A stretch of DNA of 16,612 bases from a virus (Duplodnaviria; Heunggongvirae; Uroviricota; Caudoviricetes), in the IMG/VR virus record IMGVR_UViG_2778261179_000013, positions 1-16,612 of that record; one strand, 5' to 3'. Shown here piece after piece: positions 1,156-16,612 of the stretch (its first letter is position 1; every line of letters begins with the position of its first letter). The notes under the pieces are model-generated. The model saw only the letters and a program-made list of their open reading frames with translations, was not told the origin of the DNA and searched no databases. Both the position numbers and the translations under genes were made by a program.

Positions 1156-2379
1156 ATGGCTGGCGAACTTAACAAACTGAGCGACAGGAAGTTAAAGGGA
1201 TTACATGGTATCCCGGCCAGTAAGATTGAGTTCTATGCTGATGGTGCCGGGCTGAGCGCCAAGGTAACTAAAGTTGGTGGTATTAGCTGGGTGTTTACTT
1301 ACCGACTCGACGGGCAGAAGCTGCATCGTCTTACTCTGGGACGATACCCGGATATGAGCCTCAAAGAGGCCCGTTCTTCGCGTGATAAATGCCGCCAATG
1401 GCTGGCCTCAGGTAAAGATCCAAAGCACCAGTTGGCGCTGACCACTCAGGAAACGCTTAAACCGGTCACTGTTAAGGAAGCTATCGAATACTGGATACGC
1501 GAATATGCAGAAGAGAACCGCGCGAATGTTGAAAGGCACAAAGCGGAGCTGCGTAAACACATTTATCCTTATATTGGGAAAATGGCGCTCGCTGACTGCG
1601 AAACCCGTTATTGGCTTGACTGCTTTGACAGGATGAAAAAGAAAACGCCAGTTGCTGCGGGTTATGTGTTCCAGATGTGCAAGCAAGCCCTGAAATTCTG
1701 CCGGGTTCGTCGCTATGCTGTGAGTACCGCGCTGGAAGATTTAACAATTCCAGATGTCGGTAAAAAACAGGCAAAAAAAGACCGGGTATTAAACGATAAA
1801 GAGGCTGGCGATTTATGGGCTGCCATTACCTCTGGAACTTGCTTCATGCCTTACTACACCAGGCTACTGACAATCTTAATGGTGTTTGGGTGCCGAACGC
1901 AGGAGGCCAGACTGTCAGAATGGAGTGAATGGGATATGGATGCCTGGGTCTGGACAGTTCCCAAAGAGCACAGCAAGGGCGGCGAGAAGATTGTAAGACC
2001 TGTGCCGGATGCCATGCGCAAATTCATTGAAATACTGCATGATGAAACGAAATTATCCGGCCTTTTGCTTGGGTCGGTTAAAGGCAGTGAAGCGGTAAGT
2101 CAGTGGGGCCGCGGTGTTTATAAAAAGCTGGGGCATTCTGAACCATGGACACTGCACGATCTAAGACGAACTTTAGCAACGCATATGAATAATATGGGTA
2201 TAGCACCACACGTTGTCGAACAGTTGTTGGGGCACTCAATGCCGGGAGTTATGGCGATTTATAACCGTAGTCTGTACTTGCCTGAGAAACTGGATGCGTT
2301 GAATAAATGGTATGACCGTCTCGATATTTTGGCGGGTAATCACTCGAATATTGTTATTTTAAAGGCTGGTGAGAAATGA
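1156..2379 (+). CDS. int: Tyrosine recombinase, P4-type phage integrase
   Basis: 407 aa. N-terminal arm-binding-type region (GLSAKVTKVGGISWVFTYRLDGQKLHRLTLGRYP), catalytic region with HDLRRTLATHM (HxxR) and the LGHSMPGVMAIYNRSLY tyrosine motif. Confidence 0.95.
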   Translation: MAGELNKLSDRKLKGLHGIPASKIEFYADGAGLSAKVTKVGGISWVFTYRLDGQKLHRLTLGRYPDMSLKEARSSRDKCRQWLASGKDPKHQLALTTQETLKPVTVKEAIEYWIREYAEENRANVERHKAELRKHIYPYIGKMALADCETRYWLDCFDRMKKKTPVAAGYVFQMCKQALKFCRVRRYAVSTALEDLTIPDVGKKQAKKDRVLNDKEAGDLWAAITSGTCFMPYYTRLLTILMVFGCRTQEARLSEWSEWDMDAWVWTVPKEHSKGGEKIVRPVPDAMRKFIEILHDETKLSGLLLGSVKGSEAVSQWGRGVYKKLGHSEPWTLHDLRRTLATHMNNMGIAPHVVEQLLGHSMPGVMAIYNRSLYLPEKLDALNKWYDRLDILAGNHSNIVILKAGEK

Positions 2380-2678
2380 AAAAGATAAATAAAATGACCG
2401 AATTACCGAAATGGTTTTCATTGGACAATTACAATTCTATCAATGGGCTGAGTGATCTTGATTTAATTAATCAGTTAGCTATGAGAATGGAAGTTGCTAA
2501 TGATGATTTTGAATGGCTTGATACCTATCCCGGAGCAAGAAATGAGTTCGCTTCATTTATGGAAGAAAGATTTAGTAACCCAATTCGGCCACTGAGCGGA
2601 AAATTATTTGCAGAAAAAATAAAAAGAAAAAATATTCTGAATGGCAAATGGATTCCGTCGGAGGTGTTGAGCCTTTAA
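2376..2678 (+). CDS. Hypothetical protein (AT-rich cargo ORF)
   Basis: 100-aa ORF whose ATG overlaps the int stop (ATGA at 2376-2379). Markedly AT-rich compared with the flanking genes. No motif recognised. Confidence 0.4.
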   Translation: MKKINKMTELPKWFSLDNYNSINGLSDLDLINQLAMRMEVANDDFEWLDTYPGARNEFASFMEERFSNPIRPLSGKLFAEKIKRKNILNGKWIPSEVLSL

Positions 2679-3163
2679 GATTAATTGATGTGATGCAGTT
2701 GTCTAAGAAAGCCGCTCATTATATTGATGAAAATAAAATTAATCGCTCATTGCGTGGACAAAAAAGGTCTGTAAGTAAGACCATAAGCGATAATGATCAA
2801 ATGCATATTACTTTAGATTTGTCTTGGCCTGATGAAATTTTATTAAGCGATTTGGCTGCATTGTTGCCAATATGGCGAATGGATCTTGAAAGGAAAAGTG
2901 AAAATAGTTGTAAGTTAAGTAATAGCTGGAGTGTAATCAAAAAGAAAATATTCGATTGCAAGATATTGCCAATGTTAGACCTTATGGAGTGGGCTAAAAT
3001 TAACAATGCAACAATCACTAACAGAGTTTTATCTTTAGCCCTGTTTCCTAATGCAGAGTATGACGCCATTGGTATCGCTCAAACGATCAAACCGTTCATT
3101 AGAAATTTTTCCGCAGATTTTTCTATAGAAATATTAAAGCGCAAAGCTATGGATTCATTTTAA
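2648..3163 (+). CDS. Hypothetical protein (AT-rich cargo ORF); start uncertain (alternative ATG at 2693)
   Basis: 171-aa ORF in a different frame, overlapping the previous ORF by 31 nt just after an A-rich run (2606-2632). Either a separate gene or the distal half of a frameshifted gene. No motif recognised. Confidence 0.45.
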   Translation: MDSVGGVEPLRLIDVMQLSKKAAHYIDENKINRSLRGQKRSVSKTISDNDQMHITLDLSWPDEILLSDLAALLPIWRMDLERKSENSCKLSNSWSVIKKKIFDCKILPMLDLMEWAKINNATITNRVLSLALFPNAEYDAIGIAQTIKPFIRNFSADFSIEILKRKAMDSF

Positions 3164-3266: not shown

Positions 3267-3551
3267 ATGCAAAATATCACCTTTATCCCGCCAAATCCTG
3301 AGCAGCGCCGCACCCTTTTAGAGGAGTACGGCTTTAAGTTCGACCGTCGAATCCGTGAAGAAGAATGTAGCGAGATCACCAGCCTTTCCCGTTCCAGCCG
3401 CTGGAAGATGGAACAGCAGGGGCGCTTCCCTCCGCGCTGTCACTTTGGCCGCAATAGCTGTGCCTGGCTTCTTTCGGATGTGCTCTGGTGGGTTCGTAAT
3501 CCGCCAGCAGTAGAGAACGTCAATAACCCGTACAGCCGCAAATCTGCTTAA
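3267..3551 (+). CDS. alpA: AlpA-family phage transcriptional regulator (helix-turn-helix)
   Basis: 94 aa. EITSLSRSSRWKMEQQGRFPPRCHFGRNSCAWLLSDVLWW matches the AlpA pattern (tGlSRst.Y ... G.FP ... G.rsv.W ... eV..Wl). GGAGG lies upstream of the ATG. Confidence 0.7.
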   Translation: MQNITFIPPNPEQRRTLLEEYGFKFDRRIREEECSEITSLSRSSRWKMEQQGRFPPRCHFGRNSCAWLLSDVLWWVRNPPAVENVNNPYSRKSA

Positions 3552-3571: not shown

Positions 3572-4378
3572 ATGGAAAAAATAACTGCCTTGGCTGGCAG
3601 CGGCCAAACTCACCCCGAAACCAGCCAGAAAGATATTTCCAGCGATAATTTTGCTGCCCGGATCCCTGTAACCATGAGCACTATTGGTGGGAAAGAAACT
3701 CAGTCTGTAAGTGGTCGTAAGCTGCATACGTTTCTAGCTGTAGGGCGAGACTTTACCACCTGGATGAAAGCACGCATCAAACAGTATGGGTTTGTTAAAG
3801 GGGTTGATTATGTAATTGTTGAAGATTTGAGCACCCCAAAACGGGGGAGCGCAAAATCTCGCCAACAAGTCGAGCACGATTACATTGTCAGCCTGAATAT
3901 GGCTAAAGAGCTTTCTATGGTTGAGCGCAACGCGCAAGGCAAGATGGCCCGCCAGTATTTCATCGACTGTGAAGAACGTCTGCGCCGCGTAGCACCAGAG
4001 GAACATGAGGCGGCGTTGTTGGGCTGGCGTAAAAATCGTGTAGCTGCCTGCGAAGATCATAAGAGTATGGCCGATGCAATGAAGGGCTATATCGAGCGCA
4101 CCGGCGACAGGCAGCACGGCTTTGCCTACAGCAATGAATGCTCGTTCCTGAATAGCCTTGTGCTGGGTATGCACCCGCGAGTGTGGGCGAAACAGAAAGA
4201 AATTCCAGTTAAGCTGGTGCGTGACCATATGAACGCCGATCAGCTGGCGCTGCTGGCTTATCTGGAAAGCCGTGATTGTGCTCTGCTGGATCTTGATACC
4301 CGTACGGCAACCCGTAAGGCGAAACTCACCGAACTGGCACAACGCTGGCTGGTTAAGCGTGTTGGAGGTGCTGAGTGA
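3572..4378 (+). CDS. Phage antirepressor-like protein (AntA-type N-terminal domain)
   Basis: 268 aa. SGRKLHTFLAVGRDFTTWMKARIKQYGFVKGVDYVIV resembles the AntA/AntB antirepressor N-terminal motif (sARdLH.fL ... F..W ... ygF.eg.Dy). The C-terminal half is unassigned. Confidence 0.55.
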   Translation: MEKITALAGSGQTHPETSQKDISSDNFAARIPVTMSTIGGKETQSVSGRKLHTFLAVGRDFTTWMKARIKQYGFVKGVDYVIVEDLSTPKRGSAKSRQQVEHDYIVSLNMAKELSMVERNAQGKMARQYFIDCEERLRRVAPEEHEAALLGWRKNRVAACEDHKSMADAMKGYIERTGDRQHGFAYSNECSFLNSLVLGMHPRVWAKQKEIPVKLVRDHMNADQLALLAYLESRDCALLDLDTRTATRKAKLTELAQRWLVKRVGGAE

Positions 4379-4708
4379 TTTTGCATAACTCAATCAGGGT
4401 TGCGCAGAATTTGAGCCGACGAAATTCGCACGCGCAAATCAAGCTCGGTGATATGCCGAGTTTGAACAACCGCGTACTTTTAACGTACGGACATAGCAAC
4501 CCATTGAATCATCTTAATTATCGCGAAATGCGAGAATTGGCGAGCAACGAACACGAACAGTATTCGGGTTCGCCTGAACATCAACACTGCTTAGGTTCAG
4601 AGGTTCCGACGAATAACGTAGAGAGCTGCAATGGCAGCGCATTTTTGCTCTACGAGGGAAATCAACAACGTACAGTTTTGTACCGTAATCCAGATTTGGC
4701 TTACGAGA

Positions 4709-4768
4709 GGGTAGTACCTCAAAGTCACGAGGTTAACAGGGTAGTAACTCATAGTTACCAGGTTAACC
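4709..4768. repeat. Tandem direct repeat, 2 x 30 bp (25/30 identical), each unit containing GTTAAC
   Basis: gggtagtacctcaaagtcacgaggttaaca (4709-4738) and gggtagtaactcatagttaccaggttaacc (4739-4768). The units carry different internal stems (ACCTC/GAGGT in unit 1, GTAACT/AGTTAC in unit 2). Confidence 0.8.
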
Positions 4769-4877
4769 GCGTCGCTAAAAGATACGCGGAAAGCAAGACC
4801 TCTTTAAGAGGGGCAGTTCAGTGCGTGGAGACCTACGAAATTTTCGTAGGTCACAGCATTACCGAGAGTAACCCTGT

Positions 4878-5063
4878 TCAGCTTTCAGATTCCGATCTGG
4901 CTTTCTTGCGTTGGCGGCGTTTGATCTCGCATTGCATGGCTGTAACGATAAATTGGGCAGTGCTTTCGCCTTGCTCTTTAACTTGTTCCATTGCCTCGAC
5001 AACTTCATGCGGGGCACGAGTTTGCAATTTTTGTGATTTTTCGTTCTTTGTTCCCGTCGCCAT
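4878..5063 (-). CDS. Ribbon-helix-helix (Arc/CopG/MetJ-like) transcriptional regulator, probable island repressor
   Basis: 61 aa from the ATG at 5061-5063 (minus), preceded by AGGAGA with a 7-nt spacer. QKLQTRAP-HEVVEAMEQVKEQ-GES-TAQFIVTAMQCEI fits the RHH beta-strand / helix A / G-x-S turn / helix B pattern. The supplied ORF track starts it at a TTG at 5084. Confidence 0.65.
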   Translation of the reverse strand: MATGTKNEKSQKLQTRAPHEVVEAMEQVKEQGESTAQFIVTAMQCEIKRRQRKKARSESES

Positions 5064-5081
5064 TACTAAGTCTCCTGATAT

Positions 5082-5190
5082 CAAGTGGAGTACAGAATAC
5101 CAGAAAAATAATGAAATAAAACACTTGAAGTGGATTCCACTTTGTATTTATAGTGGAGTCCACCTTGAAGGGGTTCACCTTCAAGATATA
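5082..5190. promoter_or_regulatory. Divergent promoter/operator region with interleaved inverted repeats (half-sites AAGTGGA / TCCACTT and CACTT / AAGTG)
   Basis: cacttgaagtg (5122-5132) and aagtgga-t-tccactt (5128-5142) are overlapping palindromes; agtggagtccac (5152-5163) and ccttgaagg plus caccttcaag (5161-5185) follow. The region lies between the RHH gene and the rightward operon. Confidence 0.55.
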
Positions 5191-5261
5191 GCGAAGCCCG
5201 GCAGTGCGCGAACACTAACCGGGCCTCTGACCACCAAGATAGTTAACGTATCGAGGCAGCT

Positions 5262-5450
5262 ATGAAAGATTATATCACACACCCGCAAGGGCGGAAGTCC
5301 TACACCTGGCGTTTTCTGGCGCTGAGCGCCATCGGTCGCAACGTCATTCACATCAAAGCTACCACCGAACGCGAAGCCCGTGAGCAATCACCGGCTGGCT
5401 GCGTGATGGTATTCGCTGGCCGTCTGCCTGTGGAGGTGCGCCATGCGTGA
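5262..5450 (+). CDS. Hypothetical small protein (first gene of the rightward replication operon)
   Basis: 62-aa ORF with GAGG 5 nt upstream of the ATG; overlaps the next ORF. Confidence 0.5.
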   Translation: MKDYITHPQGRKSYTWRFLALSAIGRNVIHIKATTEREAREQSPAGCVMVFAGRLPVEVRHA

Positions 5451-5637: not shown

Positions 5638-5852
5638 GACAGGTTCCTTTTGAAGTCCTGATGCACGCTGAAAATGCCCTTTCTGAAAGCGAAGGAGCCT
5701 ATGAGGTTCTCAGCATGTGGCTAGACAGTATTCCTGAAGGCGAGGAGTTCCACGGTGAAGCGTGCAAGGTAAGCGCAATCATGTCGCTGCTGCATAAATC
5801 TATCGGCGAGCTGGTGAAAGCGCGGGAGGCTTACAGTGAAAAACGCGCCTAA
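5634..5852 (+). CDS. Hypothetical small acidic protein
   Basis: 72-aa ORF with GGAGA upstream; overlaps the start of the replication gene. Confidence 0.5.
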   Translation: MRQVPFEVLMHAENALSESEGAYEVLSMWLDSIPEGEEFHGEACKVSAIMSLLHKSIGELVKAREAYSEKRA

Positions 5853-7605
5853 CGTGAAAACCCTCCCACGCGACAAAATGGAGGAGGCCATCATCTTTGC
5901 CGGAACAGGAGCATGGAAAGCAGCTCAGGATTACCAGAAAGGTAAAGATGAGCATGGCGATGAGGTGCCGCCGGTTGTTCTGGATCATACCCAGCTGGCG
6001 GAATTACCCCACCTGCGCATTGTTGATAAAGGACGCCGATTTGCCCGTGTCTGTCAGGCCGGACTTATCGAACAAAACCAAATCAGTATGATTGCCAATA
6101 AGTTGTGTGAGGCTGGCGTTACCAATGCTGAGTTTATCAACGAAAAAGGTGAGAAAGAGGACTGGACGCCATTAATGAAGCGTCTGGAAGACGAGCCCCT
6201 AATGGTGACTACGAGGGGTAGCGCTACGCCAGCGCTTAACCAGATGGGAGCCAGCCAGCGCGGGGAAGTTCTGCTTGCTCATTACGATGGCAATCTGGCG
6301 ATCCATGCTGATTCCGACACGGTTCATCATTACAACGGCGTGGTGTGGGTTCCGCTTTCGGATAAAGAGCTGCAGCGAGAAATGGCGCAAATTTTTATTG
6401 ATGCCGAAGTCGCCTATTCGCAGAACGCGATTAAATCCGCTGTCGATACAATGAAGCTGGGTCTGCCAGTGATGGGTAACACAGCCCGAAATCTTATTGG
6501 TTTCAGCAACGGGGTTTTTGATACCCGGTTAGGGCAATTTCGACCACATGATAAAAAGGACTGGCTTATCGTTGCGAGCGAATTGCCATTCAGCGAACCA
6601 GCAGAAGGAGAGACTCTGGCAACCCATGCGCCGAACTTCTGGAAATGGCTCCGCCGCTCTGTGGCGGATAATGACAGAAAATCAGACCGCGTACTGTCTG
6701 CTCTGTTCATGGTGCTGGCGAACCGGTACGACTGGCAGCTGTTTCTTGAGGTAACGGGGCCGGGCGGAAGTGGTAAAAGTGTTATGGCTGAGATCTGCAC
6801 GATGCTGGCCGGCAAAGCCAATACGGTATCGGCAAGCATGGCGGCGCTGGAGAACCCAAGGGAAAGGGCGCTGGTGGTTGGCTATTCGCTGATTATCATG
6901 CCGGATATGACCCGGTACGCTGGCGACGGCGCAGGGATTAAAGCTATCACTGGCGGGGATAAGGTAGCTATCGACCCTAAACACAAAGCGCCGTATTCAA
7001 CGCGTATTCCGGCAGTGGTGCTGGCCGTCAATAACAATGCCATGTCATTCAGCGACCGAAGCGGTGGTATTTCGCGTCGTCGGGTTATTTTTAACTTCTC
7101 AGAGGTGGTACCGGAAAACGAACGTGATCCTATGCTTGCCGAGAAGATTGAAGGTGAGCTGGCCGTTATCATTCGCCACCTGCTTACTCGCTTTTCCAGA
7201 CAGGACGAGGCCAAACAGCTTTTGCATGAGCAGCAGAAATCAGAAGAGGCGCTGGCCATCAAACGTGAAGGGGATTCACTGGTGGACTTTTGCGGCTACC
7301 TGATGGCTTCGGTCGTATGTGATGGCATGTTTATCGGGAACGCCGAGATCGTACCGTTCAGCCCGCGCCGTTATCTGTATCACGCTTATCTGGCTTATAT
7401 GCGGGCTAACGGCCTGAGCAAGCCGGTGTCGCTGATGAGGTTCGGCACGGATATGCCAGGCGCAATGGCTGAATATGGCAAGGAGTACCAGAAGCGCAAA
7501 ACAAAACATGGCATAAGATCAAACGTCACACTTCACGACGATTCAGAAGACTGGATGCCTATGTGGAATGATACTTCTCACAATACCGGAGAAAATCAAA
7601 AGTAA
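5836..7605 (+). CDS. Replication initiator / SF3 helicase of the P4 alpha (D5-like) family (PICI pri-rep-like)
   Basis: 589 aa. Walker A VTGPGGSGKS, a Walker B-like LIIMPDMT region, and a D5_N-like segment (IGFSNGVFDTRLGQFRPHDKKDW). GTG start at 5836 is preceded by GGGAGG with a 7-nt spacer. No EGYATA-type primase motif seen in the N-terminal ~300 aa. Confidence 0.85.
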   Translation: MKNAPNVKTLPRDKMEEAIIFAGTGAWKAAQDYQKGKDEHGDEVPPVVLDHTQLAELPHLRIVDKGRRFARVCQAGLIEQNQISMIANKLCEAGVTNAEFINEKGEKEDWTPLMKRLEDEPLMVTTRGSATPALNQMGASQRGEVLLAHYDGNLAIHADSDTVHHYNGVVWVPLSDKELQREMAQIFIDAEVAYSQNAIKSAVDTMKLGLPVMGNTARNLIGFSNGVFDTRLGQFRPHDKKDWLIVASELPFSEPAEGETLATHAPNFWKWLRRSVADNDRKSDRVLSALFMVLANRYDWQLFLEVTGPGGSGKSVMAEICTMLAGKANTVSASMAALENPRERALVVGYSLIIMPDMTRYAGDGAGIKAITGGDKVAIDPKHKAPYSTRIPAVVLAVNNNAMSFSDRSGGISRRRVIFNFSEVVPENERDPMLAEKIEGELAVIIRHLLTRFSRQDEAKQLLHEQQKSEEALAIKREGDSLVDFCGYLMASVVCDGMFIGNAEIVPFSPRRYLYHAYLAYMRANGLSKPVSLMRFGTDMPGAMAEYGKEYQKRKTKHGIRSNVTLHDDSEDWMPMWNDTSHNTGENQK

Positions 7606-7860
7606 TGGGAAAAGTGTTCACCACTATTCACTGTGGATAAAATCGTTTATATAACAGATATTTAAGGGGTGAACACTTTTTATTGAAGTGTTCACCAAGT
7701 ATTCACCTGTTCACCTTTAAAGGGCTTTTCTTTTAAAAGGTGAAGGGTTAGGGTGAACACTAGTGAATACTTAAAATTATAGTCTTCACCCTGTAACCAT
7801 ATGAATTTGAATGGAAAAAATGCAAAGGTGAACAGGTGAACACTTAAACGCATATTTTTT
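7606..7860. repeat. Iteron array and AT-rich tract; putative origin of replication (P4 ori/crr-like)
   Basis: At least 10 copies of GGTGAACA(CTT) or its reverse complement (AAG)TGTTCACC, e.g. 7612-7622, 7668-7678, 7686-7696, 7709-7716, 7751-7760, 7826-7833, 7834-7844, plus variants (tattcacc, gtgaatac, cttcacc), followed by T-rich runs at 7852-7866. Placement immediately 3' of the replication gene is typical for these satellites. Confidence 0.75.
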
Positions 7861-7878
7861 ATTTTTACGAGGCTGCAT

Positions 7879-8223
7879 ATGGAAATTTTAGGCAACCATA
7901 ACGACAAGTTTCACGGCATCAAATTTCTGCATAGTGCAATTGAAGAAATGAATGAGAAAGCTGAAGTAACTCTGACCGACTATCTGGCTCTTAGGGCTTT
8001 TGTTCTGGCTGAGCGAAGAGAAACTCAGGACTACATTGATGCAATGGATGAAACGTATGCTGATTTGCCCGATGATCTGCGTTCTTACATTGAGCTTCTT
8101 AATGACGTTGCCGCACAGCTATCAAATCCATCACGCTCAAATGGGAATTTAAAATCAATTATTTACGATGCGAGAATATCAAGCGGAAACGCCATGTCTC
8201 ACTGGTTCAGTGTTGATAGATAG
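7879..8223 (+). CDS. Hypothetical protein (AT-rich cargo, gene 1 of a two-gene cassette)
   Basis: 114-aa ORF with ACGAGG 6 nt upstream of the ATG. Acidic and predicted helical; no motif recognised. Compositionally distinct from the flanking replication and head genes. Confidence 0.55.
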   Translation: MEILGNHNDKFHGIKFLHSAIEEMNEKAEVTLTDYLALRAFVLAERRETQDYIDAMDETYADLPDDLRSYIELLNDVAAQLSNPSRSNGNLKSIIYDARISSGNAMSHWFSVDR

Positions 8224-8246
8224 TAAAATCTAAGAAGGGATAACTA

Positions 8247-9092
8247 ATGCGTACTAATGATGATTTACAGATAATCCGAAAGCATCTGGATGGTGAATTT
8301 GAACAGCGCCTGTTAGACGCTGCGATCAATAACCTTTTGGATGAAAATAATCAGCTTCGGTTCAGCAATTATGCCTATGCACTTAGAGAGCTATTCTTAC
8401 ACGTTCTAAAACGCATGGCACCTGATGAAAATGTTCAACTATGCGAGTGGTTTCCTGGTTTGAATGAAAGAGAGCAGGTTGCAAGAAAAGACTCTTACAA
8501 ATATATCATTCATGGTGGGTTAAGTGATGAATATGTCAGGGATGTACTTGATGTAAATATTGCCGGAGTAATTCCGGGATTGCGTGATGCGTTCTACTCA
8601 TTAAATAAATTTACTCACATAAGCGAAAAGATTTTTCCAATTAATGATGACGATGGCCTAAAAATGGTGGGAGAGGTTGAAGGTTGCATCGGAGCTCTTT
8701 TCACCAAGCTTGATGAGTGTCATAAGGAGATAATTAATAAGCTTTATGAAGCTGTGAGTGAGGCCGCGATACATAGTTCGATAACTGAAACTGTAACATC
8801 AATTGATATTTTATCGACACACAGCTCGGTTGATGAAGTGTATGTTGATGATGTGAAAATAGTAGAAATAAATGACTCTGAAGTAATTTTCTCTGTTAGT
8901 GGCTCTGTAGGTGTCGGGTTGCAATGGGGATCTAATTCCGATTTGCGAAATGACATAGGTGCTGTAGGTAGAGAAACATTCCCATTTACCTGCGAGGTGA
9001 GAAGTCCAGTGTATGCCCCTGAACGTTTAGAGTGTGATGAAGGGGCATTCCATGCAGATACTTCAAGTTGGTGGGAAGGATATTACGACTAA
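8247..9092 (+). CDS. Hypothetical protein (AT-rich cargo, gene 2 of a two-gene cassette)
   Basis: 281-aa ORF with AAGAAGGGA upstream of the ATG. Helical N-terminal region containing an R-x4-H motif (RELFLH) and a beta-rich C-terminal region. Followed by an intrinsic terminator. Confidence 0.6.
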   Translation: MRTNDDLQIIRKHLDGEFEQRLLDAAINNLLDENNQLRFSNYAYALRELFLHVLKRMAPDENVQLCEWFPGLNEREQVARKDSYKYIIHGGLSDEYVRDVLDVNIAGVIPGLRDAFYSLNKFTHISEKIFPINDDDGLKMVGEVEGCIGALFTKLDECHKEIINKLYEAVSEAAIHSSITETVTSIDILSTHSSVDEVYVDDVKIVEINDSEVIFSVSGSVGVGLQWGSNSDLRNDIGAVGRETFPFTCEVRSPVYAPERLECDEGAFHADTSSWWEGYYD

Positions 9093-9128
9093 CAAGTGTA
9101 AATTATTCGTCCTCGCGTTTATTAGTGC

Positions 9129-9324: not shown

Positions 9325-10491
9325 ATGAAGAAACTACTCGAATTACGCCAGCAGAAAGCCACACTCAAAACCCAGATGCGTTCCATGCTGGACAAAGCCG
9401 ACACCGAAAAGCGCAGCCTGAACGAAGAAGAGGGCAAAAAGTTCGATGAACTCCGCGCCCAGGCTGATGCGCTTGAAGTTGAAATTACCCGCCTCGAAGC
9501 CGTCGCCGACGATCAGCGCAATCTGCCTGGTACTTCCGTTGAAGGTGAGCTAGTAAGCAACGACGAGCTGCGTCACTACATTATGACCGGTGATACCCGT
9601 TCTCTCTCCACGCTGGTGCAGGCTGACGGCGGTTATACCGTTATTCCTGAACTGGACAAAGAGATCATGCGTCAGTTGCAGGATGATAGCGTGATGCGCT
9701 CCATCGCAACGGTAAAGACCACCAAAACCAACGAATACCAGAAACTGGTATCTGTGGGCGGCACTACCGTTAAGCGCGGTACCGAAGGCGAAGCGCGTAC
9801 CGAAACCAGCACGCCGAAGATGGAGCGTGTTGATATCAAACTCAACCCGATCTACGCCTATCCGAAAACCACTCAGGAAATTCTCGACTTCTCTGAGGTG
9901 GATATTCTGGGCTGGCTGTCTTCTGAAATTGCCGACACCTTCACCGCTACCGAAGAGAGCGACTTTGTGAACGGCGACGGTGATAAAAAATCCAAAGGGT
10001 TCCTGTCTTACCCTCGCGCGGCCACAGCCGATAAAACCCGCCCGTTCGGTACGCTGGAGAAGATGGAAGCTGCTGACGTTTCCTCTGATGGCCTGATCGA
10101 CCTGCTGTATAAGCTGAAAGCCAAATACCGCAAAAACGCCGTATGGGTGATGAACTCCAATACCGCGGCCAAACTGCAAAAGCTGAAAAACGGCAACGGG
10201 GATTACATCTGGCGAGATCGTCTGGTTGCCGGTTCTCCCGATACGCTGCTGGGCCGTCCGGTTCAATATCTCGAAACCATGCCAGATGCGGAAGCAGGTG
10301 AAGCGTTCCTTGCTGTGGGCGACTTCAAACGCGGCTATTTCATCGTGGATCACACCACTGGTGTGCGTACCCGTCCTGACAACATCACCGAACCGGGTTT
10401 CTACAAGGTACATACCGATAAATACCTGGGCGGCGGCGTGGTGGACTCCAACGCCATCAAGGTGCTTGAGCTTTCCGGCTCCGGTTCCTGA
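9325..10491 (+). CDS. Major capsid protein, HK97 family (with N-terminal delta/scaffold-like coiled coil)
   Basis: 388 aa. N-terminal coiled-coil region (LELRQQKATLKTQMRSMLDKADTEKRSLNEEEGKKFDELRAQADALEVEITRLEA) and HK97-MCP-like core blocks (GGYTVIPE ... AVWVMNSNTAAKLQKLKNGNGDYIW ... LLGRPV ... GDFKRGYFIVDH). Confidence 0.9.
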   Translation: MKKLLELRQQKATLKTQMRSMLDKADTEKRSLNEEEGKKFDELRAQADALEVEITRLEAVADDQRNLPGTSVEGELVSNDELRHYIMTGDTRSLSTLVQADGGYTVIPELDKEIMRQLQDDSVMRSIATVKTTKTNEYQKLVSVGGTTVKRGTEGEARTETSTPKMERVDIKLNPIYAYPKTTQEILDFSEVDILGWLSSEIADTFTATEESDFVNGDGDKKSKGFLSYPRAATADKTRPFGTLEKMEAADVSSDGLIDLLYKLKAKYRKNAVWVMNSNTAAKLQKLKNGNGDYIWRDRLVAGSPDTLLGRPVQYLETMPDAEAGEAFLAVGDFKRGYFIVDHTTGVRTRPDNITEPGFYKVHTDKYLGGGVVDSNAIKVLELSGSGS

Positions 10492-10539: not shown

Positions 10540-11100
10540 ATGAAAACAATTGATTTTGAAATCCGCACCTCCGATCTGAGCGCCAGTAACAAAAAGCTGG
10601 TGGGCTATGCCGTGCGCTGGAACAGTCTCTCTGAAATTATCTGGGACGAGTTCCGCGAGCAGTTTGCGCCGGGAGCGTTTAAAGACAGCCTGGCATCAGG
10701 TAGCGATGTGCGTGCGCTGTACGAGCATAACTATACCCAGCTGCTGGGCCGCACTAAATCCGGAACGCTGGTGCTGTCCGAAGACGATACCGGGCTGCGC
10801 TTCGAGCTGACCCCGCCGAATACCCAGCTTGGTAACGATGTGCTGGAGCTGGTGGAGCGTGGTGATATCTCCGGCATGAGCTTTGGTTTCCGGGCGCTGA
10901 AAGAGGCGTGGGATATCGGCCAGTCTCCATACCTGCGCACTGTTACCGCAGCCGAACTGCGGGAGATTACCGTTACCTCTATGCCTGCTTATCCTGAGTC
11001 TGGCGTGGAAATCGCGCACCGTTCGCTTTTCTCCCAACATCCTGAACTGCGCCGCGCTGGCGATAACCGTCGCCGCTGGGCTGAATTAGCGGGGCTCTGA
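10540..11100 (+). CDS. Prohead maturation protease, HK97 family (S78-like)
   Basis: 186 aa. LVGYAVRWNS ... FAPGAFKDSL ... LYEHNY ... GMSFGF fits the HK97 prohead protease pattern, including the candidate His and Ser residues. Confidence 0.85.
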   Translation: MKTIDFEIRTSDLSASNKKLVGYAVRWNSLSEIIWDEFREQFAPGAFKDSLASGSDVRALYEHNYTQLLGRTKSGTLVLSEDDTGLRFELTPPNTQLGNDVLELVERGDISGMSFGFRALKEAWDIGQSPYLRTVTAAELREITVTSMPAYPESGVEIAHRSLFSQHPELRRAGDNRRRWAELAGL

Positions 11101-11101
11101 T

Positions 11102-12337
11102 ATGTGGAATATCTGGCCGTTTGGCCGCAAGTCTGAACCCTCTGAGCAGCGCAGCATGACCATTGATGAATTTCTGGCGATGGCAGGGATTCCAAATACC
11201 GGATCAGGCGAGTATGTGTCTGCGGGTACTGCGGAATCTCTGCCGGCGGTCATGAACGCCGTATCAGTTATCAGTGAGGCGGTGGCAACAATGCCATGCT
11301 ATCTCTACCGCGTCCGTAATGATAATGGTCGTGAGGCGCGAGAATGGCTGAGTAATCACCCGGTGGATTTTCTCCTGAACGAGCAGCCGAACGACTGCCA
11401 GACGCCTTATCAGTTTAAACGCACGATGATGCGCCATTGTCTGCTGAACGGTAACGCCTATGCGGTGATCCAGTGGGGCCGCGACGGCCAGCCGCAATCC
11501 CTGCACCCGTATGCGCCGGGGGCGGTTGTTCCTGAGCGTATCGGCCAGCATAAGTACAAATACACCGTTACAGAGCCGTTTACCGGGGCTGTGCGCACCT
11601 ATCTACAGGAAGAGATTCTGCACCTGCGTTACTCCACCGATGATGGCTTTCTGGGGCGTTCGCCTATTACTACGTGCCGTGAGGCGCTGGGGTTAGGTCT
11701 GGCCCAACAGCGCCACGGTGCCAGCATTATGAAAGATGGCATGATGGCGGCGGGCGTCGTCACTACTGCTGAATGGCTCGACAGCGTGAAGGGTAAGCAG
11801 GCTCTGGACGCACTGGAGCGCTACAAAGGTGCCAGAAATGCCGGGAAAACGCCGATCCTTGAAGGTGGCATGGATTATAAGCAGCTGGGCATGAGCAATC
11901 AGGATGCCGAATGGCTGGCCTCTCGTCGCTTCACCATTGAAGACATTGCCCGCATGTTCAACGTGTCGCCTATCTTCCTGCAGGAATACAGCAACAGCAC
12001 CTACAGCAATTTCAGCGAAGCGAGCCGCGCCTTTCTTACCATGACGATGCGCCCGTGGCTGGCGAACTTCGAACAACAAATCAAATCTGCGCTGCTGGTG
12101 GCCTCCCCAGTCCCAGGAACCCGTTATCAGGTGGAGTTTGACTCTGCTGACCTTCTCCGCGCCACGCCAACCGAACGTTATGCCACTTATGAGCGCGGTA
12201 TTAAGAACGGGATCATGAACCCGAACGAAGCCCGAGAGCGTGAGGGGATGCCACCGCGTGAAGGTGGTGACGAATTCAGCCAGGCATGGAAGCAGGAAGT
12301 GAAGATCAGCAAAGACGGCAAGGAAGGTGACGCATGA
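11102..12337 (+). CDS. Portal protein, HK97 family
   Basis: 411 aa. Conserved blocks LLNGNAYAVI, GFLGRSPI, FTIEDIARMFNVSPIFLQE and NPNEAREREGMPP match the HK97-type portal pattern. Its start is 2 nt after the protease stop. Confidence 0.9.
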   Translation: MWNIWPFGRKSEPSEQRSMTIDEFLAMAGIPNTGSGEYVSAGTAESLPAVMNAVSVISEAVATMPCYLYRVRNDNGREAREWLSNHPVDFLLNEQPNDCQTPYQFKRTMMRHCLLNGNAYAVIQWGRDGQPQSLHPYAPGAVVPERIGQHKYKYTVTEPFTGAVRTYLQEEILHLRYSTDDGFLGRSPITTCREALGLGLAQQRHGASIMKDGMMAAGVVTTAEWLDSVKGKQALDALERYKGARNAGKTPILEGGMDYKQLGMSNQDAEWLASRRFTIEDIARMFNVSPIFLQEYSNSTYSNFSEASRAFLTMTMRPWLANFEQQIKSALLVASPVPGTRYQVEFDSADLLRATPTERYATYERGIKNGIMNPNEAREREGMPPREGGDEFSQAWKQEVKISKDGKEGDA

Positions 12338-12672
12338 GAGCCGGGGGGCTGAGAAGCCGCGTCACTATTCGGGTATTCACTACCCACAGGGAGCCGTCCG
12401 GTCAGGTTGTTCAGGTCTGGGAAGACGGGGAAACCATATGGGCTGAGGTTAAGGGGATCAGTGGCCGAGAGTTAATGGCGTCAGGTGCCGAGGTTGCCGA
12501 AGCGACGATCCGCGTTTGGGTGCGTTTCCGCCGTGATATTACCGCAGCCAACCGTCTGAAAGTGCTTACTGGCCCGTTTGCTGGCAGCACTCTCAATATT
12601 ATCGGGCCTCCTATTCCTGATTCGGAAGGTACCCGGCTGGAAATTCTCTGCAAGACAGGAACGGAAAAATGA
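12334..12672 (+). CDS. Head-tail adaptor / head closure protein (SPP1 gp16-like)
   Basis: 112 aa; RVTIRVFTTHREPSGQVVQVWEDGETIWAEVKGISGRE fits the head-tail joining family pattern. ATGA overlap with the portal gene. Confidence 0.7.
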   Translation: MRAGGLRSRVTIRVFTTHREPSGQVVQVWEDGETIWAEVKGISGRELMASGAEVAEATIRVWVRFRRDITAANRLKVLTGPFAGSTLNIIGPPIPDSEGTRLEILCKTGTEK

Positions 12673-12962
12673 CAGCAGAAATCACCCTGGATGAAGCAAA
12701 GCTGCATTGCCGTATTGATGATGATTACGAAGATACGTTGATACAGGCGTACATCGATGCGGCGCTGGAGGTTTGCCAGAAGCATATCGGCAAGCGGTTT
12801 GATAACGGGCTGGAGTTTACGCCAGCTATCAAGATTGGCTGTCTGATGTACGTATCTCAGCTGTACGAGTACCGCACGATGATTGGTGATACCGACGCCA
12901 AAGAGATACCGATGGCTGTCTCTGCGTTGTGGTCTGTCTATCGTGATGTGGGGGTGTACTGA
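12669..12962 (+). CDS. Head-tail connector protein (gp6-like)
   Basis: 97 aa; ITLDEAKLHCRIDDDYEDTLIQAYIDAALEVCQKHIGKR ... YEYR fits the gp6-like connector pattern. ATGA overlap with the upstream gene. Confidence 0.7.
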   Translation: MTAEITLDEAKLHCRIDDDYEDTLIQAYIDAALEVCQKHIGKRFDNGLEFTPAIKIGCLMYVSQLYEYRTMIGDTDAKEIPMAVSALWSVYRDVGVY

Positions 12963-13405
12963 TGCCGTGGCAACCACTACGCCGGTGCAATGAGCCTGGA
13001 TGTAATAAACGGGTGAAGTCTGGCAAGTGTGACGAGCATAAGCGGGATGCCCGCCGACAAAGCGACAGCCGAAGAGGTACGCGAACAGAGCGTGGTTACT
13101 CCAACCGCTGGGGCGAATACCGTCGTCATTTTCTAAAAGCTAATCCGCTGTGTGTCCATTGTCTCAAGGCTGGCGTCTATGCATCGGCAACTATCGTCGA
13201 TCACATCATCCCTATCGAGGGTGAAGCTGATGTGCTGTTCTGGCCCGCCAGTAATCACCAGTCGTTATGCGCTGCCTGTCATGGACGGAAGACAACCACA
13301 ACAGACCCGGTGACGAAGCAGCAGCGTAAAGCCGGTAAGTTCCGCGAGCAGGAAGAAGCAGCACGTCATCGCACCGACTGGATCTATGAGGCAAACAATG
13401 ACTGA
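12962..13405 (+). CDS. HNH endonuclease (packaging-associated)
   Basis: 147 aa. Cys-rich N-terminus (CNEPGCNKRVKSGKCDEH) and an HNH core (CVHC ... DHIIPIEGEADVLFWPASNHQSLCAACHGRKT). Position next to the terminase genes is typical of HNH-cos packaging systems. Confidence 0.85.
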   Translation: MPWQPLRRCNEPGCNKRVKSGKCDEHKRDARRQSDSRRGTRTERGYSNRWGEYRRHFLKANPLCVHCLKAGVYASATIVDHIIPIEGEADVLFWPASNHQSLCAACHGRKTTTTDPVTKQQRKAGKFREQEEAARHRTDWIYEANND

Positions 13406-13550
13406 GCAGGAACAGCAGCGGCTGATTAGTGGGCTGATAAAGCAGCGTGAGTCATGGCAACCAGCCAGACAGAGAGCGCATAAGAAGCCCGTAGCAAAGC
13501 GCATGAGCCAGCGTGACCGGGAGCTTATGGAATGCTTTCGCAACCGCTGA
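13398..13550 (+). CDS. Possible small basic protein (50 aa), unannotated in the ORF track
   Basis: The ATG at 13398 overlaps the HNH gene end and the frame is open to the TGA at 13548-13550, giving MTEQEQQRLISGLIKQRESWQPARQRAHKKPVAKRMSQRDRELMECFRNR. Below the track's length cut-off; low support. Confidence 0.3.
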   Translation: MTEQEQQRLISGLIKQRESWQPARQRAHKKPVAKRMSQRDRELMECFRNR

Positions 13551-13680
13551 CAGGCCGAATGGACGGGGTGGGGGAGGTTTTAAAGACAAACCCCTCTCAG
13601 CGAGGAACCACCCGCCCCCTCAAATTTTTACGCACGGTGATTTTTTTGAAAATAAAACGCGACGGAAACGAGAAATTTTT

Positions 13681-14037
13681 ATGGCAAGACCACCCAAACC
13701 GCCAGCTTACCTTGATGAGTTAGCTGCGCAGCAGTGGAAAGCGAAGGCGAAGCAACTGGCGGAGCGCGGGGATTTGACTCCCGCCGACTGGAACAACCTT
13801 GAGCTTTTTTGCGTCAACTATTCGATGTACCGCAAAGCCGTGGAAGACCTTGCCAGCCGTGGGTTCAGCATTGTTAACAGCCAGGGCGGTGAGAGCCGAA
13901 ATCCGGCGCTGAGCGCAAAGGCCGATGCTGAAAAAATCATGATTAAAATGTCGTCGCTGCTGGGCTTTGATCCGGTAAGCCGCCGCCGGAACCCGGTGGA
14001 AACGGAGGAGGAAGACGAGCTTGACCGTCTGGAATGA
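13681..14037 (+). CDS. terS: Terminase small subunit (P27-family-like)
   Basis: 118 aa from the ATG at 13681: MARPPKPPAYLDELAAQQWKAKAKQLAERGDLTPADWNNLELFCVNYSMYRKA ... The track ORF from 13513 adds an implausible Gly-rich N-terminal extension, so the internal ATG is preferred. Confidence 0.8.
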   Translation: MARPPKPPAYLDELAAQQWKAKAKQLAERGDLTPADWNNLELFCVNYSMYRKAVEDLASRGFSIVNSQGGESRNPALSAKADAEKIMIKMSSLLGFDPVSRRRNPVETEEEDELDRLE

Positions 14038-15682
14038 GTACGCAAACGCGATAAAAACGGGCGAAATTCCGGCCTGTAAGCGCGTAAAACAGGCCGTGGA
14101 AAGGTACTTTTCAGACCTGAATGACCCCCGTTATGTGTTCGATACGGCGACCGTAGAGCGGTTTATTGCGTTCTCGCGGCTCTGTCCTCACGTCAAAGGC
14201 CCGTTGCGCGGGCAGTCTATCGAGCTGGAGCCGTGGCAGCAGTTCGCCTTTGCTAACCTGCTGGGCTTTAAAGTCAGGGAGTCAGGCCGCCGGAAGTATA
14301 GCAGCGCCTTTATTGAGGTGCCGCGCAAGAATGCCAAATCCACCGTGGCCGCCATGCTGGCTAACTGGTTTCTGGTGATGGAGAAGGGCCAGCAGGATAT
14401 CTACACGGCGGCGGTAAGCCGGGATCAGGCCCGAATCGTGTTCGACGATGCCCGCCAGATGTGCCTGCTGTCAAAACCGCTGAAAAAGCGCGTCAGTATT
14501 CAGGCACACAAGGTCATTTTCCCGAAGAGCAACAGCCTGTTAAAGCCGCTGGCGGCAAAAGCGGCCACCATTGAAGGGACTAACCCCAGCCTGGCGATTG
14601 TCGATGAGTACCACCTTCACCCGGATAACGGCGTTTATTCCGCGCTTGAGCTGGGTATGGGCGCCCGTCCTGAGGCAATTTTGTTCGCCATCACTACCGC
14701 CGGGAGTAACGTAGTCTCGGCCTGTAAGCAGCATTATGACTACTGCTGCCAGATTCTGGCAGGGGAAGAGAGCAACGATTCTCTGTTTGTCCTGATATAC
14801 GAGCTGGACGACGAAATTGAGGTTGAGCAGCCGGAAATGTGGATTAAGGCCAACCCTAACCTGCATGTGTCTGTTGACGCAGCGAAGCTGGAATCCACCA
14901 TCCAGAAAGCGCGGGGGATACCGTCGCAATGGGTGGAAATGCTCACCAAACGTTTCAATATCTGGTGTCAGGGCTCCACGCCGTGGATGGGGGCTGGCGC
15001 GTGGGATGCCTGTGCACTCGACTATAACGAAGAAGAGCTGGTCGGAATGGAGTGTTATGCCGGGTTTGACCTGTCCTCAACCAGCGATATCACCAGCGTG
15101 AGTTACGCTTTCCCGTTTGACAGGGAGATCCGGCTTCTGACCCGCCACTATCTACCGGAAGCGCAACTGCTTAACGTCGCCAACAAAAACCGCGCCATCT
15201 ATCGCCAGTGGGTAAAAACGGGCTGGATACGCACCACACCCGGCGACTGTATCGACTATGACCGCATTCGTGACGATATCCTGCGCGATGCTGAAACCTT
15301 CAATATTCGGCTGGTGGGCTTTGATACGTGGAACGCTACGCATCTGCGCACCCAGCTACAGGGTGCGGGCCTTGATGTTGAGCCATTCCCGCAAACCTAT
15401 CTCAGGTTCAGTCCGGTAGCGAAATCCTTTGAAGTGTTTGTTAACCGCAGGGTAGTGCGCCATCGCGGTGATCCGGTTCTGGCCTGGGCGATTGGTAACG
15501 TGGTGATGGAGTCCGACGCCAATGCCAACATCAAGCCCAACAAAAAGAAATCCTCCAACAAGATAGATCCGGCTGTGTCTGCGTTAATGGCGTTTGGCAC
15601 CTTCCAGGCTGAGCACGAGGATTTTGCATTTGATATGAGTGACAGTCACAAACAACGGCTAGCTGATTTCAATGGGCTTTGA
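14021..15682 (+). CDS. terL: Terminase large subunit
   Basis: 553 aa. Walker A-like EVPRKNAKST, Walker B-like LAIVDEYH and a C-terminal nuclease-type region. Apparent TTG start at 14021 overlapping the terS end, so the start codon is uncertain. Confidence 0.9.
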   Translation: MTVWNEYANAIKTGEIPACKRVKQAVERYFSDLNDPRYVFDTATVERFIAFSRLCPHVKGPLRGQSIELEPWQQFAFANLLGFKVRESGRRKYSSAFIEVPRKNAKSTVAAMLANWFLVMEKGQQDIYTAAVSRDQARIVFDDARQMCLLSKPLKKRVSIQAHKVIFPKSNSLLKPLAAKAATIEGTNPSLAIVDEYHLHPDNGVYSALELGMGARPEAILFAITTAGSNVVSACKQHYDYCCQILAGEESNDSLFVLIYELDDEIEVEQPEMWIKANPNLHVSVDAAKLESTIQKARGIPSQWVEMLTKRFNIWCQGSTPWMGAGAWDACALDYNEEELVGMECYAGFDLSSTSDITSVSYAFPFDREIRLLTRHYLPEAQLLNVANKNRAIYRQWVKTGWIRTTPGDCIDYDRIRDDILRDAETFNIRLVGFDTWNATHLRTQLQGAGLDVEPFPQTYLRFSPVAKSFEVFVNRRVVRHRGDPVLAWAIGNVVMESDANANIKPNKKKSSNKIDPAVSALMAFGTFQAEHEDFAFDMSDSHKQRLADFNGL

Positions 15683-15718: not shown

Positions 15719-16612
15719 TTAATATTCGACTTGCTGAGCCGGAACGGAGTTTAAAATCCAGCATTCTTGATGGACAAAATTTATATTCAGAGCAGATAAA
15801 TATTGTTGCTCATATGCTCTGTATATTAATAGTTTTGTTTGATTCTGATCATCCAATTCATAATCCGTTTTTGCAGTGCTCCATTGGGAGTGAAGCATTA
15901 CTGATTGAACAAAGGAGTTCATCTTTATACTCATGTTCATTACATTTGAAGATGTTCCGGCATATTTGTATGAGTCGATTACCGTGTTTTTTCCATCGCC
16001 ATCAACATCGAAAGGATTGGATATCCACTTGAATGTATTTAACAAAAAAAGATTGGCGACCCAAGTGTAATCGTTGCCGTTTATATTTTCTGTGGTAGAA
16101 GAGCTAATGCTTTCATGGAGATTGGTTGCCCCCATGAAAATCGCCTCAGGATCTATCTTTCCGTCAGACCTTCGCTGCCTTCCGGCTGCTAAGTAATTGA
16201 AAATGCCAGCATAACACTGCCCCATATATACTATCGCTCTATCTAAATCTGGCGTTGTTTTTATGCGATTAAGTAACCTATAGGGCGGTATTGGTGGGAG
16301 GGCGTCCAATCCATGCATACTTCCATGACCCGTTATAAATATAACTATATTATCATGGGTATTATCGTCGCAATCCGAAAAAAATTCGCTGCTTCTTTTT
16401 ACATTATATTGATGGTTAGTGCCAACTGAGATTAATTTTTGTATATTTCCTCTGTTGTTTCCATCTATATAAATAAAAATATCAGCAGGATTAATTCCAC
16501 GATTTTCTAAGCAGTAAATCCCAAAGGCCAGATCAGAAACATGCCGATCTTCCGGCTCACTGCTGGAAGCCAAAAAAAGAACCCATTTTGTTTTGTCTGC
16601 TAATAGCCCCAT
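15719..16612 (-). CDS. Caspase-like (clan CD, C13/C14-type) peptidase-domain protein; N-terminus at the window edge, possibly partial
   Basis: 297 aa on the minus strand with stop at 15719-15721 and ATG exactly at 16610-16612. Clan CD layout: hydrophobic strand ending in His-Gly (NIVIFITGHG) followed about 38 residues later by a strand ending in the catalytic-type Cys (AIVYMGQCYAG). AT-rich and convergent with terL. Confidence 0.6.
   Translation of the reverse strand: MGLLADKTKWVLFLASSSEPEDRHVSDLAFGIYCLENRGINPADIFIYIDGNNRGNIQKLISVGTNHQYNVKRSSEFFSDCDDNTHDNIVIFITGHGSMHGLDALPPIPPYRLLNRIKTTPDLDRAIVYMGQCYAGIFNYLAAGRQRRSDGKIDPEAIFMGATNLHESISSSTTENINGNDYTWVANLFLLNTFKWISNPFDVDGDGKNTVIDSYKYAGTSSNVMNMSIKMNSFVQSVMLHSQWSTAKTDYELDDQNQTKLLIYRAYEQQYLSALNINFVHQECWILNSVPAQQVEY

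Follow-up and report, generated by a model that had tools for sequence, protein, structure and literature searches.

A Candidate HK97/phiE125-Type Cohesive-End Site Upstream of the Small Terminase Gene in a Capsid-Forming Satellite of Escherichia coli

Phage-inducible chromosomal islands of the capsid-forming type (cf-PICIs) package only their own DNA in small capsids of their own and borrow tails from unrelated phages, so that identical islands spread across species, and this raises the question of where in such an island the cis-acting site for selective packaging lies. The DNA analyzed here, referred to below as the window, is the complete 16,612 nt stretch of IMG/VR record IMGVR_UViG_2778261179_000013 (Caudoviricetes), which represents a 16.6 kb cf-PICI of Escherichia coli inserted between yhdJ and fis. 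Its packaging block, consisting of genes for an HNH endonuclease, a small open reading frame (ORF), and the small (terS) and large (terL) terminase subunits, contains a sole non-coding gap at positions 13551–13680, which an earlier note made from the sequence alone had put forward as a candidate cos or packaging site. Homology of sequence, spacing and gene context to experimentally determined cos ends supports that suggestion, and the gap is very probably the cos site of the island, of the HK97/phiE125/D3 type and cut by TerL together with its HNH partner. The nicks are predicted to lie at 13618|13619 on the top strand and 13608|13609 on the bottom strand, and we lean towards an exact nick within 2 nt of 13618|13619.

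Alignment to Mapped Cos Junctions

Several phages with a homologous small terminase have database records that start at the physical cohesive end, and the record ends of phi644-2, phiE125, HK97 and D3 were read along with the corresponding region in ST64B and SfIV. For phi644-2, the 3' single-stranded extension has been identified as the ten bases that close the record, 5'-CGCCCGCTTC-3' (PMC2920897), and phiE125 has this overhang as well. For HK97, a 10-nt 3' overhang and a TerS site at +15 to +29 have been established by biochemistry and cryo-EM (PMC11331095, PMC9410871), the latter site containing C:G21 and a 9-bp A-tract (PMC11331095). The window sequence GGAACCACCCGCCCC|CTCAAATTTTTACGC aligns without gaps to GGGACCGCCCGCTTC|GTCAAATTTTCACGC of phi644-2, and its left ACC and right ACGC are in register with phi644-2, phiE125 and HK97; the record ends of HK97 and D3 fall in the same register. 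Across the core (−15 to +16), 24 of 31 positions are identical to phi644-2, 23/31 to both phiE125 and ST64B, 15/31 to HK97 and 13/31 to D3. When the comparison is extended, again without gaps, to the full 107 nt, the window matches the HK97, phi644-2, phiE125 and D3 junctions at 44–48 positions, a level reached by only 0–5 of 20,000 random window segments.

A common layout underlies these matches. In all cases a G-run followed by an A/T block is found about 55–33 nt before the right end, then a variable spacer, and finally (G/A)ACC with a terminal C-rich run, while the left end begins with (G)TCAAATTTT(C)ACGC or a variant of it and continues with A:T tracts 4–6 nt further on, and then terS. 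HK97 reads ACGC-N6-GATTTTTTT and the window ACGC-N5-GATTTTTTT, which places this tract at +22 to +30 in HK97 and at +21 to +29 in the window. The features of an HK97-type cos are thus present, namely placement between HNH and terS-terL, homologous TerL and HNH proteins, and homology to mapped ends, and the site is of the ordinary HK97/phiE125 cohesive-end type rather than a new kind of element.

When phage records were searched by BLAST with the 130 nt, the matches were to the HNH-terS gaps of the Pasteurella elements Pmp7 and Pmp8 (78–84% identity), to a contig obtained from a lysate raised on E. coli O157:H7 ATCC 43895 (90% identity), and to the final 37 nt of the linear vB_KppS-Ant record. 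The lysate contig encodes a TerS that is 100% identical over 106 aa, and presumably derives from EcCIEDL933, a cf-PICI for which induction by a helper phage, and transfer in small capsids of its own fitted with helper tails, have been shown in the literature.

Parts of the Segment

Reading from left to right on the plus strand, the first element is a conserved G-run, GGGGTGGGGGAGG, at 13565–13577 (−54 to −42 from the predicted nick; pairwise identity among relatives 0.88), which is unique in the window and has an equivalent at the same distance in HK97, D3, phiE125, phi644-2 and ST64B. Its role may lie in termination, or it may be the place where a nuclease docks. Directly after it comes the A/T-rich block TTTTAAAGACAAACC (13578–13592, −41 to −27; identity 0.88), whose T-run/A-run pattern is seen in all cf-PICI relatives. 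A variable spacer follows at 13593–13605 (−26 to −14; identity 0.59) and contains the short dyad CCTC-TCAGC-GAGG; among relatives there are many unrelated spacer sequences, with no consistent covariation. The predicted 10-nt 3' cohesive end, CACCCGCCCC, occupies 13609–13618, where the alignment to the mapped overhang of phi644-2 is free of gaps. Immediately right of the predicted nick lies the nearly invariant block CTCAAATTTTTACGC (13619–13633, +1 to +15), which leads into the predicted small-terminase binding site at 13633–13647 (+15 to +29), including an A:T tract at 13640–13647 (tract identity 0.97). A second conserved A-rich block, GAAAATAAAA (13648–13657, +30 to +39; identity 0.95), is shared with Pasteurella Pmp7 and Pmp8.

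The G-run and C-run strings on which the earlier note was built are all in place (ACGGGGTGGGGGAGG at 13563–13577, CCCCTCTC at 13591–13598 and CCACCCGCCCCCTC at 13608–13621), as are the T-rich tracts it described after the C-run, at 13625–13629 and 13641–13647, and the segment does lie directly upstream of terS, the ATG of which is at 13681. Its location between the HNH and terS genes holds as gene order, but the immediate left neighbor is a 54-aa ORF (13386–13550) that overlaps the end of the HNH gene, not the HNH gene itself. The supposed symmetry of the G-run and C-run could not be upheld: they do not form a true inverted repeat (a repeat finder returned no such pair), and what is present is a top-strand G-run and a bottom-strand G-rich run about 45 bp apart. 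The G-run is more than a chance feature: GGGGNGGGGG, for which 0.07 copies would be expected in 16.6 kb, is present once, while GGGGG is rarer in the window than expected (11 versus 25.6).

Conservation among Relatives

Two sets of relatives were compared. The first was found in IMG/VR by the 15-mer TCAAATTTTTACGCA and is therefore biased by construction; in 90 of its 119 hits the exact 15-mer lies between HNH and terS homologues. The second was retrieved via the TerS protein only (78 unique sequences), and here the motif, allowing up to two mismatches, is present in 72 of 73 unique upstream regions. The exception, L198 (IMGVR_UViG_2690315961_000006), has lost the whole cos region together with the first six TerS codons and carries unrelated upstream sequence; this island has probably decayed and lost the ability to be packaged.

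Mean pairwise identity in the TerS-retrieved set is highest just right of the predicted nick (0.986 for +1 to +11), and remains high in the A-tract (0.966) and the block at +30 to +39 (0.948). Intermediate values are found for the block at −15 to −11 (0.884), the A/T block (0.878), the G-run (0.876), the blocks at +12 to +16 (0.847) and +17 to +21 (0.832), and the overhang (0.828), compared with 0.712 at terS third codon positions and 0.587 in the spacer (here −29 to −16). The non-coding blocks (0.83–0.99) are thus under stronger constraint than synonymous sites in terS (0.71), and the spacer under weaker constraint. Among 109 unique regions the predicted overhang takes the form of 30 different C-rich decamers, several of which stand beside identical TerS proteins.

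In some Pasteurellaceae-type relatives (L006, L065 and L018) an extra 85–235 nt lies between the conserved A-tract and terS, shifting the terS start codon from about +62 to +147 or +297 and indicating that the cos blocks and terS are separable. The left side of the region is mosaic: the HNH and small-ORF module does not vary together with cos, terS and terL, DNA similarity breaking off near 13497, just left of cos, and in many relatives (loci L007, L033, L104 and others) TerS is 100% identical while HNH is at 62–68% and the small ORF at 35–45%. No contig end was found at the predicted nick in the IMG/VR hits or in 57 assemblies with the exact TerS (nine places shown); those contig ends fall at island/prophage boundaries or at a mosaic junction near 13546. 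At one such place, L225 (GCA_011037955.1, SBDC01000086.1), the contig ends 135 nt upstream of terS, equivalent to window position 13546, probably because the assembly graph breaks where several islands share the terS-terL module.

An Assembly Break in vB_KppS-Ant

The vB_KppS-Ant record (LR881103) is 16.5 kb long, has the gene content of a cf-PICI, was assembled from particle DNA using a Nextera XT library, and matches a stretch of the K. pneumoniae DSM 30104 chromosome at >99% identity. Its linear sequence begins at the base corresponding to window position 13657 and runs out at the one corresponding to 13587. An integrated relative with 96% identity is collinear with it on both sides, without gaps, and has 69 nt that are absent from the Ant record, 31 nt to the left and 38 nt to the right of the predicted nick. 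Linear molecules are poorly covered in transposase libraries over their terminal tens of bases, and a symmetric loss of this kind is what would be expected if the packaged molecules had unique ends here. For KpCIDSM30104, the cf-PICI of K. pneumoniae DSM 30104, a high-molecular-weight band has been attributed to the annealing of cos cohesive ends, and this island and vB_KppS-Ant appear to be one element.

The paper reporting vB_KppS-Ant placed it in a new genus, as a filamentous phage with single-stranded DNA (PMC8006926). The genes that it carries, for integrase, primase, HK97-type capsid, portal, HNH, TerS and TerL, identify it as a cf-PICI, and the annotation in LR881103 of the gene after terL as a tape measure protein seems doubtful.

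The Small Terminase and Specificity

The small terminase (terS, 13681–14037, plus strand) has 118 aa and belongs to the P27 family (Terminase_4; PF05119, E 3e-25), a Pfam family it shares with the proteins of the phiE125 group and SfIV; its identity to TerS of phi644-2 is 38% (E 5e-23). It starts MARPPKPP and is without the basic N-terminal arm of about 40 aa (GRSGRRPKP...AGNPGKR...) found in the P27-family TerS proteins of phages (158–164 aa), and the TerS of the Pasteurella cf-PICI-like elements is shortened likewise. A single-sequence AlphaFold model was poor (pLDDT 65), and a Foldseek search of the PDB with it had no hit with an E-value under 4.8.

On the DNA side, the A:T tract GATTTTTTT expected of a TerS-binding site in an HK97-type cos is present at +21 to +29 and is conserved (0.97), while the position equivalent to the essential C:G21 of HK97 is T:A in the window. 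A change from C:G21 to T:A abolished the binding of HK97 TerS in vitro (PMC11331095). The earlier note had further proposed that an island-specific cos would explain selective packaging into island-made capsids, and this is plausible, being consistent with an overhang that differs from that of HK97 and with the T:A at the C:G21 equivalent. HK106, the known helper of the prototype cf-PICI, has been used in the literature alongside HK97 components.

Proposed Mechanism

The following sequence of events may be envisaged. After induction, excision and replication, the island TerS would bind the bendable A:T tract right of the cut (~13633–13657), and TerL with HNH would introduce staggered nicks at 13618|13619 (top) and 13608|13609 (bottom), leaving 10-nt 3' overhangs of CACCCGCCCC and its complement. 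TerL would then pump DNA rightwards, that is through terS and terL, across the att junction and on through int to HNH, into the island's own small procapsid, until packaging stopped at the next cos about 16 kb on, where the DNA would be cut again. The G-run and A/T block, 27–54 nt left of the cut, would be the last DNA to enter the capsid, and may aid termination or the positioning of the nuclease. In this scheme we infer the exact nick, the overhang length, the binding of TerS and the role of the G-run by analogy with the mapped phages.

A more far-reaching idea, which we regard as speculative and on balance doubtful, is that the G-run and A/T block (13565–13592) form a functional cos sub-site common to HK97, D3, phiE125, the ST64B/SfV group and cf-PICIs. 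Such a sub-site could be a termination signal analogous to cosQ of lambda, or a docking site for HNH; a literature search found no paper assigning a role to the conserved G-run and A/T block. If the idea were true, the nick would be placed by its distance from the conserved blocks on either side and not by the sequence that is cut, which would explain both the 30 predicted overhangs and the fast-evolving spacer, and module swaps at this place could let the cos specificities of cf-PICIs and helper phages drift apart rapidly.

Difficulties and Alternative Explanations

Several observations weigh against an HK97/phiE125-type cos cut at the predicted position. That position is a homology transfer from the mapped phages, and the base at +1 is C or A in cf-PICIs and G in all mapped phages. 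The SfIV record, which was built from a prophage, has its boundary 19 nt left of the predicted position. The island TerS has no detectable sequence similarity to HK97 gp1, and since HK97 TerS uses an N-terminal arm for DNA contact, the HK97 mode of binding may not apply to a protein that lacks the arm. Finally, the gap in the Ant record could have come from poor coverage of the G/C-runs or from curation.

Some of these points can also be read as signs that the region is a cos but that the nicks lie elsewhere in 13551–13680, either about 20 nt to the left, as the SfIV record start would have it, or with an overhang of another length, 9 nt for example as in D3. The departure from G at +1 fits this, as does the finding of 30 different overhang decamers among 109 relatives, which indicates that the cut is not fixed by sequence alone. 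We nevertheless judge it improbable, because in three independently mapped systems (HK97, phiE125/phi644-2 and D3) the C-run is directly followed by the end, always in one register, the SfIV record is a prophage assembly whose orientation was chosen by its authors, and the 31 nt and 38 nt missing from the Ant record are centered on the predicted nick. Far less credence is due to a headful pac site, even though a packaging signal beside or within terS is also typical of pac phages; such a site would be hard to reconcile with a TerL for which the HK97 terminase, of the cos type, is the one relative of solved structure, with the presence of an HNH partner gene, with sequence homologous to mapped cohesive ends, with the cohesive-end concatemers reported for a sister cf-PICI, or with an island-sized T=4 capsid that fits one genome unit, and we consider it scarcely credible.

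Roles other than packaging were considered for the same sequences. The G-run and C-run might pair in a transcript or in single-stranded DNA, forming a three-way stem-loop that regulates terS and terL or terminates transcription of the head genes. The minimum-energy fold indeed pairs 13564–13573 with 13608–13619 around two small hairpins, and the predicted pairs are standard in 81% of cases across the 109 relatives, against 44–58% when the partner is slid by 1–3 nt, but the structure was derived from one of the scored sequences, which inflates the in-register score. The folding energy is no better than that of shuffled sequences (z −0.56 for RNA and −0.68 for DNA), changes in the G:C stem are one-sided or disruptive, with zero compensatory double changes, the internal spacer hairpin is not conserved, and neither a plus-strand hairpin with a T-run nor an Rfam match was found. 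This reading is therefore very unlikely, and a structured RNA, single-stranded DNA hairpin or intrinsic terminator was set aside on the basis of the shuffles, the lack of covariation and the lack of a plus-strand terminator or an Rfam match. Equally remote as the headful site is the suggestion that the segment is a mere promoter, or an IHF-like nucleoid-protein site, driving terS-terL, and that the island has its packaging site in another place. It draws on the A/T tracts upstream of terS and on the Pasteurella version, AATCAAATTTTTA, which in our own reading fits the IHF consensus WATCAANNNNTTR; however, the E. coli version departs from that consensus at the first two positions, a scan of 12900–14100 for promoters and plus-strand terminators found none, sigma-70-like promoters included, and a promoter would not explain why the G-run, the C-run and the TCAAATTTT.ACGC blocks are shared with the physical ends of unrelated phages.

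Two repeat structures were also examined and rejected as features of the site. An inverted repeat reported by the repeat finder (13545–13554 and 13593–13602) occurs only in relatives with this spacer, and was judged incidental. Small dyads in the spacers of HK97, phiE125 and phi644-2 suggested a conserved structure, with GAAGG/CCTTC versus GGAGG/CCTCC looking compensatory, but across the 109 cf-PICI-type sequences pairing is only 36–81% and inconsistent.

Island Context and Gene Content

The preferred reading, a cos site belonging to a cf-PICI, is matched by the organization of the rest of the window. A 99.7% identical copy is present in E. coli ABW_S38 (NZ_CP067265), also between yhdJ and fis and about 16 kb long, with no tail or lysis genes annotated. 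The window itself has the expected size (~16 kb, within the ~10–18 kb of cf-PICIs), neither a tail module nor lysis genes, and int, alpA and primase/rep followed in order by the capsid, protease, portal, connector, hnh, terS and terL genes, in agreement with the gene order described for proteobacterial cf-PICIs (10.1101/2022.09.08.507074). The genes encode a tyrosine integrase (1156–2379), an AlpA regulator (3267–3551), a D5-type primase (5836–7605), an HK97-fold major capsid protein (9325–10491), a prohead protease (10540–11100), a portal (11102–12337), and head completion and connector proteins (12334–12962).

Next comes the HNH endonuclease gene (12962–13405, plus strand), the product of which is a packaging accessory nuclease with matches to Pfam HNH, PHROG 144 and, in the PDB, the HNH endonuclease 5h0m; HK97 gp74 shares 39% identity with it (E 2e-16), and the HNH protein of phi644-2 shares 38% (E 1e-19). 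The 54-aa ORF on the same strand (13386–13550) matches phrog_3173 (E 5e-17), has no assigned function, and has its stop codon immediately 5' of the cos region. It is retained at the same place in relatives, at only 35–45% aa identity, and is a hypothetical protein in LR881103, while RefSeq has no annotation for it in the closest genome. Downstream of terS, terL (14021–15682, plus strand) encodes an HK97-type large terminase with the Pfam domains TerL_ATPase and TerL_nuclease, and its sole PDB match is the HK97 large terminase, 6z6d (E 9e-43, full length).

Some other features of the island were noted. A low-GC cargo region (7500–9100, GC 0.34–0.42) includes an ORF (8247–9092) with both pPIWI-associated nuclease domains, which matches the PADLOC 'Aga_Nuclease' (Argonaute-associated nuclease) model at E 7e-84; the window has no Argonaute gene. 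Upstream of it, a 114-aa ORF (7879–8223) corresponds to phrog_7232, of unassigned function. The DUF6387 gene beside the integrase (2376–3163, GC 0.34) is split into overlapping ORFs (2376–2678 and 2648–3163), but is a single 789-nt CDS in the NZ_CP067265 island, so the split in the window looks like a frameshift or a sequencing error. An AntA/AntB-type antirepressor homologue (3572–4378) weakly matches, over its C-terminal half, PDC-S22, a candidate defence model in PADLOC (E 5e-13). Two ORFs of about 296 aa, at 15719–16612 (minus strand) and 4375–5265, have no Pfam, PHROG or PADLOC match; the former lies in the low-GC (0.33–0.40) right end of the island and is a RefSeq hypothetical protein in the near-identical copy.

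Comparison with Known Systems

The cf-PICI papers derive the packaging operon from HK97-like phages and report that cohesive ends exist, and the packaging biology proposed here is as expected for an HK97-derived packaging module. Those papers (for preprints, their main text) mention cohesive ends, and no mapped cos was found in them. What is added is a base-level prediction for the cis-acting selectivity site, with a nick at 13618|13619, an overhang of CACCCGCCCC and a TerS site at ~13633–13657, which could be used in the design of packaging-competent plasmids, in studies of cross-specificity against HK97-like helpers (HK106), and in the annotation of cf-PICIs, the TerS sequence of which is very widespread in public assemblies.

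Among satellites, P4 and SaPIbov5 are likewise packaged from a cos into small capsids, but they copy the cos of the helper and use its terminase, whereas the island in the window has its own cos, HNH, TerS, TerL and capsid genes. The cos of lambda (cosQ-cosN-cosB) is alike in having a small-terminase site on the first-packaged side, staggered nicks, and a conserved upstream element on the last-packaged side; it differs in its 12-nt 5' overhangs, in having no HNH partner, and in its unrelated gpNu1 and sequence.

The nearest counterparts are the cos sites of the Burkholderia phages phiE125, phi1026b and phi644-2, where a Terminase_4 TerS (38% identity) has HNH immediately upstream and an HK97-type TerL downstream. 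In phiE125 and phi644-2 the same layout of G-run, A/T block, spacer, GACC-C-run, nick, (G)TCAAATTTT(C)ACGC and A/T tracts is found, although the overhang is CGCCCGCTTC rather than the CACCCGCCCC of the window, +1 is G rather than C, and the downstream tract is A5 rather than T7. Their TerS is also longer, that of the window being about 40 aa shorter at the N-terminus, and they are phages of 48–53 kb, compared with a 16-kb satellite. ST64B and the SfV/SfIV/SfI/SfII phages similarly have a P27-family TerS (~40%) and a G-run followed by TCAAATCC upstream, and CCCGCCCCCTCGAATTTTTA of ST64B is identical to CCCGCCCCCTCAAATTTTTA of the window at 19 of 20 positions, but this group has a phiE125-type downstream tract, CGCGAAAAATGAAATTT, and record boundaries that are off the HK97/phiE125-type cut.

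More distant in sequence, HK97 nevertheless has HNH at the right end and terS then terL at the left end, a homologous TerL, a G-run at −56 to −44, a C-rich 10-nt 3' overhang, and ACGC at +12 to +15 with GATTTTTTT 5–6 nt further on. It differs in a TerS without detectable similarity, in C:G21 where the window has T:A, and in a core that matches at only 15/31 positions, and the window cos serves an island-encoded T=4 capsid. The cos of Pseudomonas phage D3, which also has 3'-extended ends (an overhang of 9 nt), has a G-run, GGGGTGGGGCGGG, then TCAAAA at about 40–55 nt from a right end that closes in the C-run CCGCGCCCCCA, with HNH upstream and terS downstream, but has a different left end, GGTCTTTTTCC, and a core identity of 13/31. 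Taken together, these comparisons show one cos architecture common to HK97 and to Burkholderia, Pseudomonas and Pasteurella elements.

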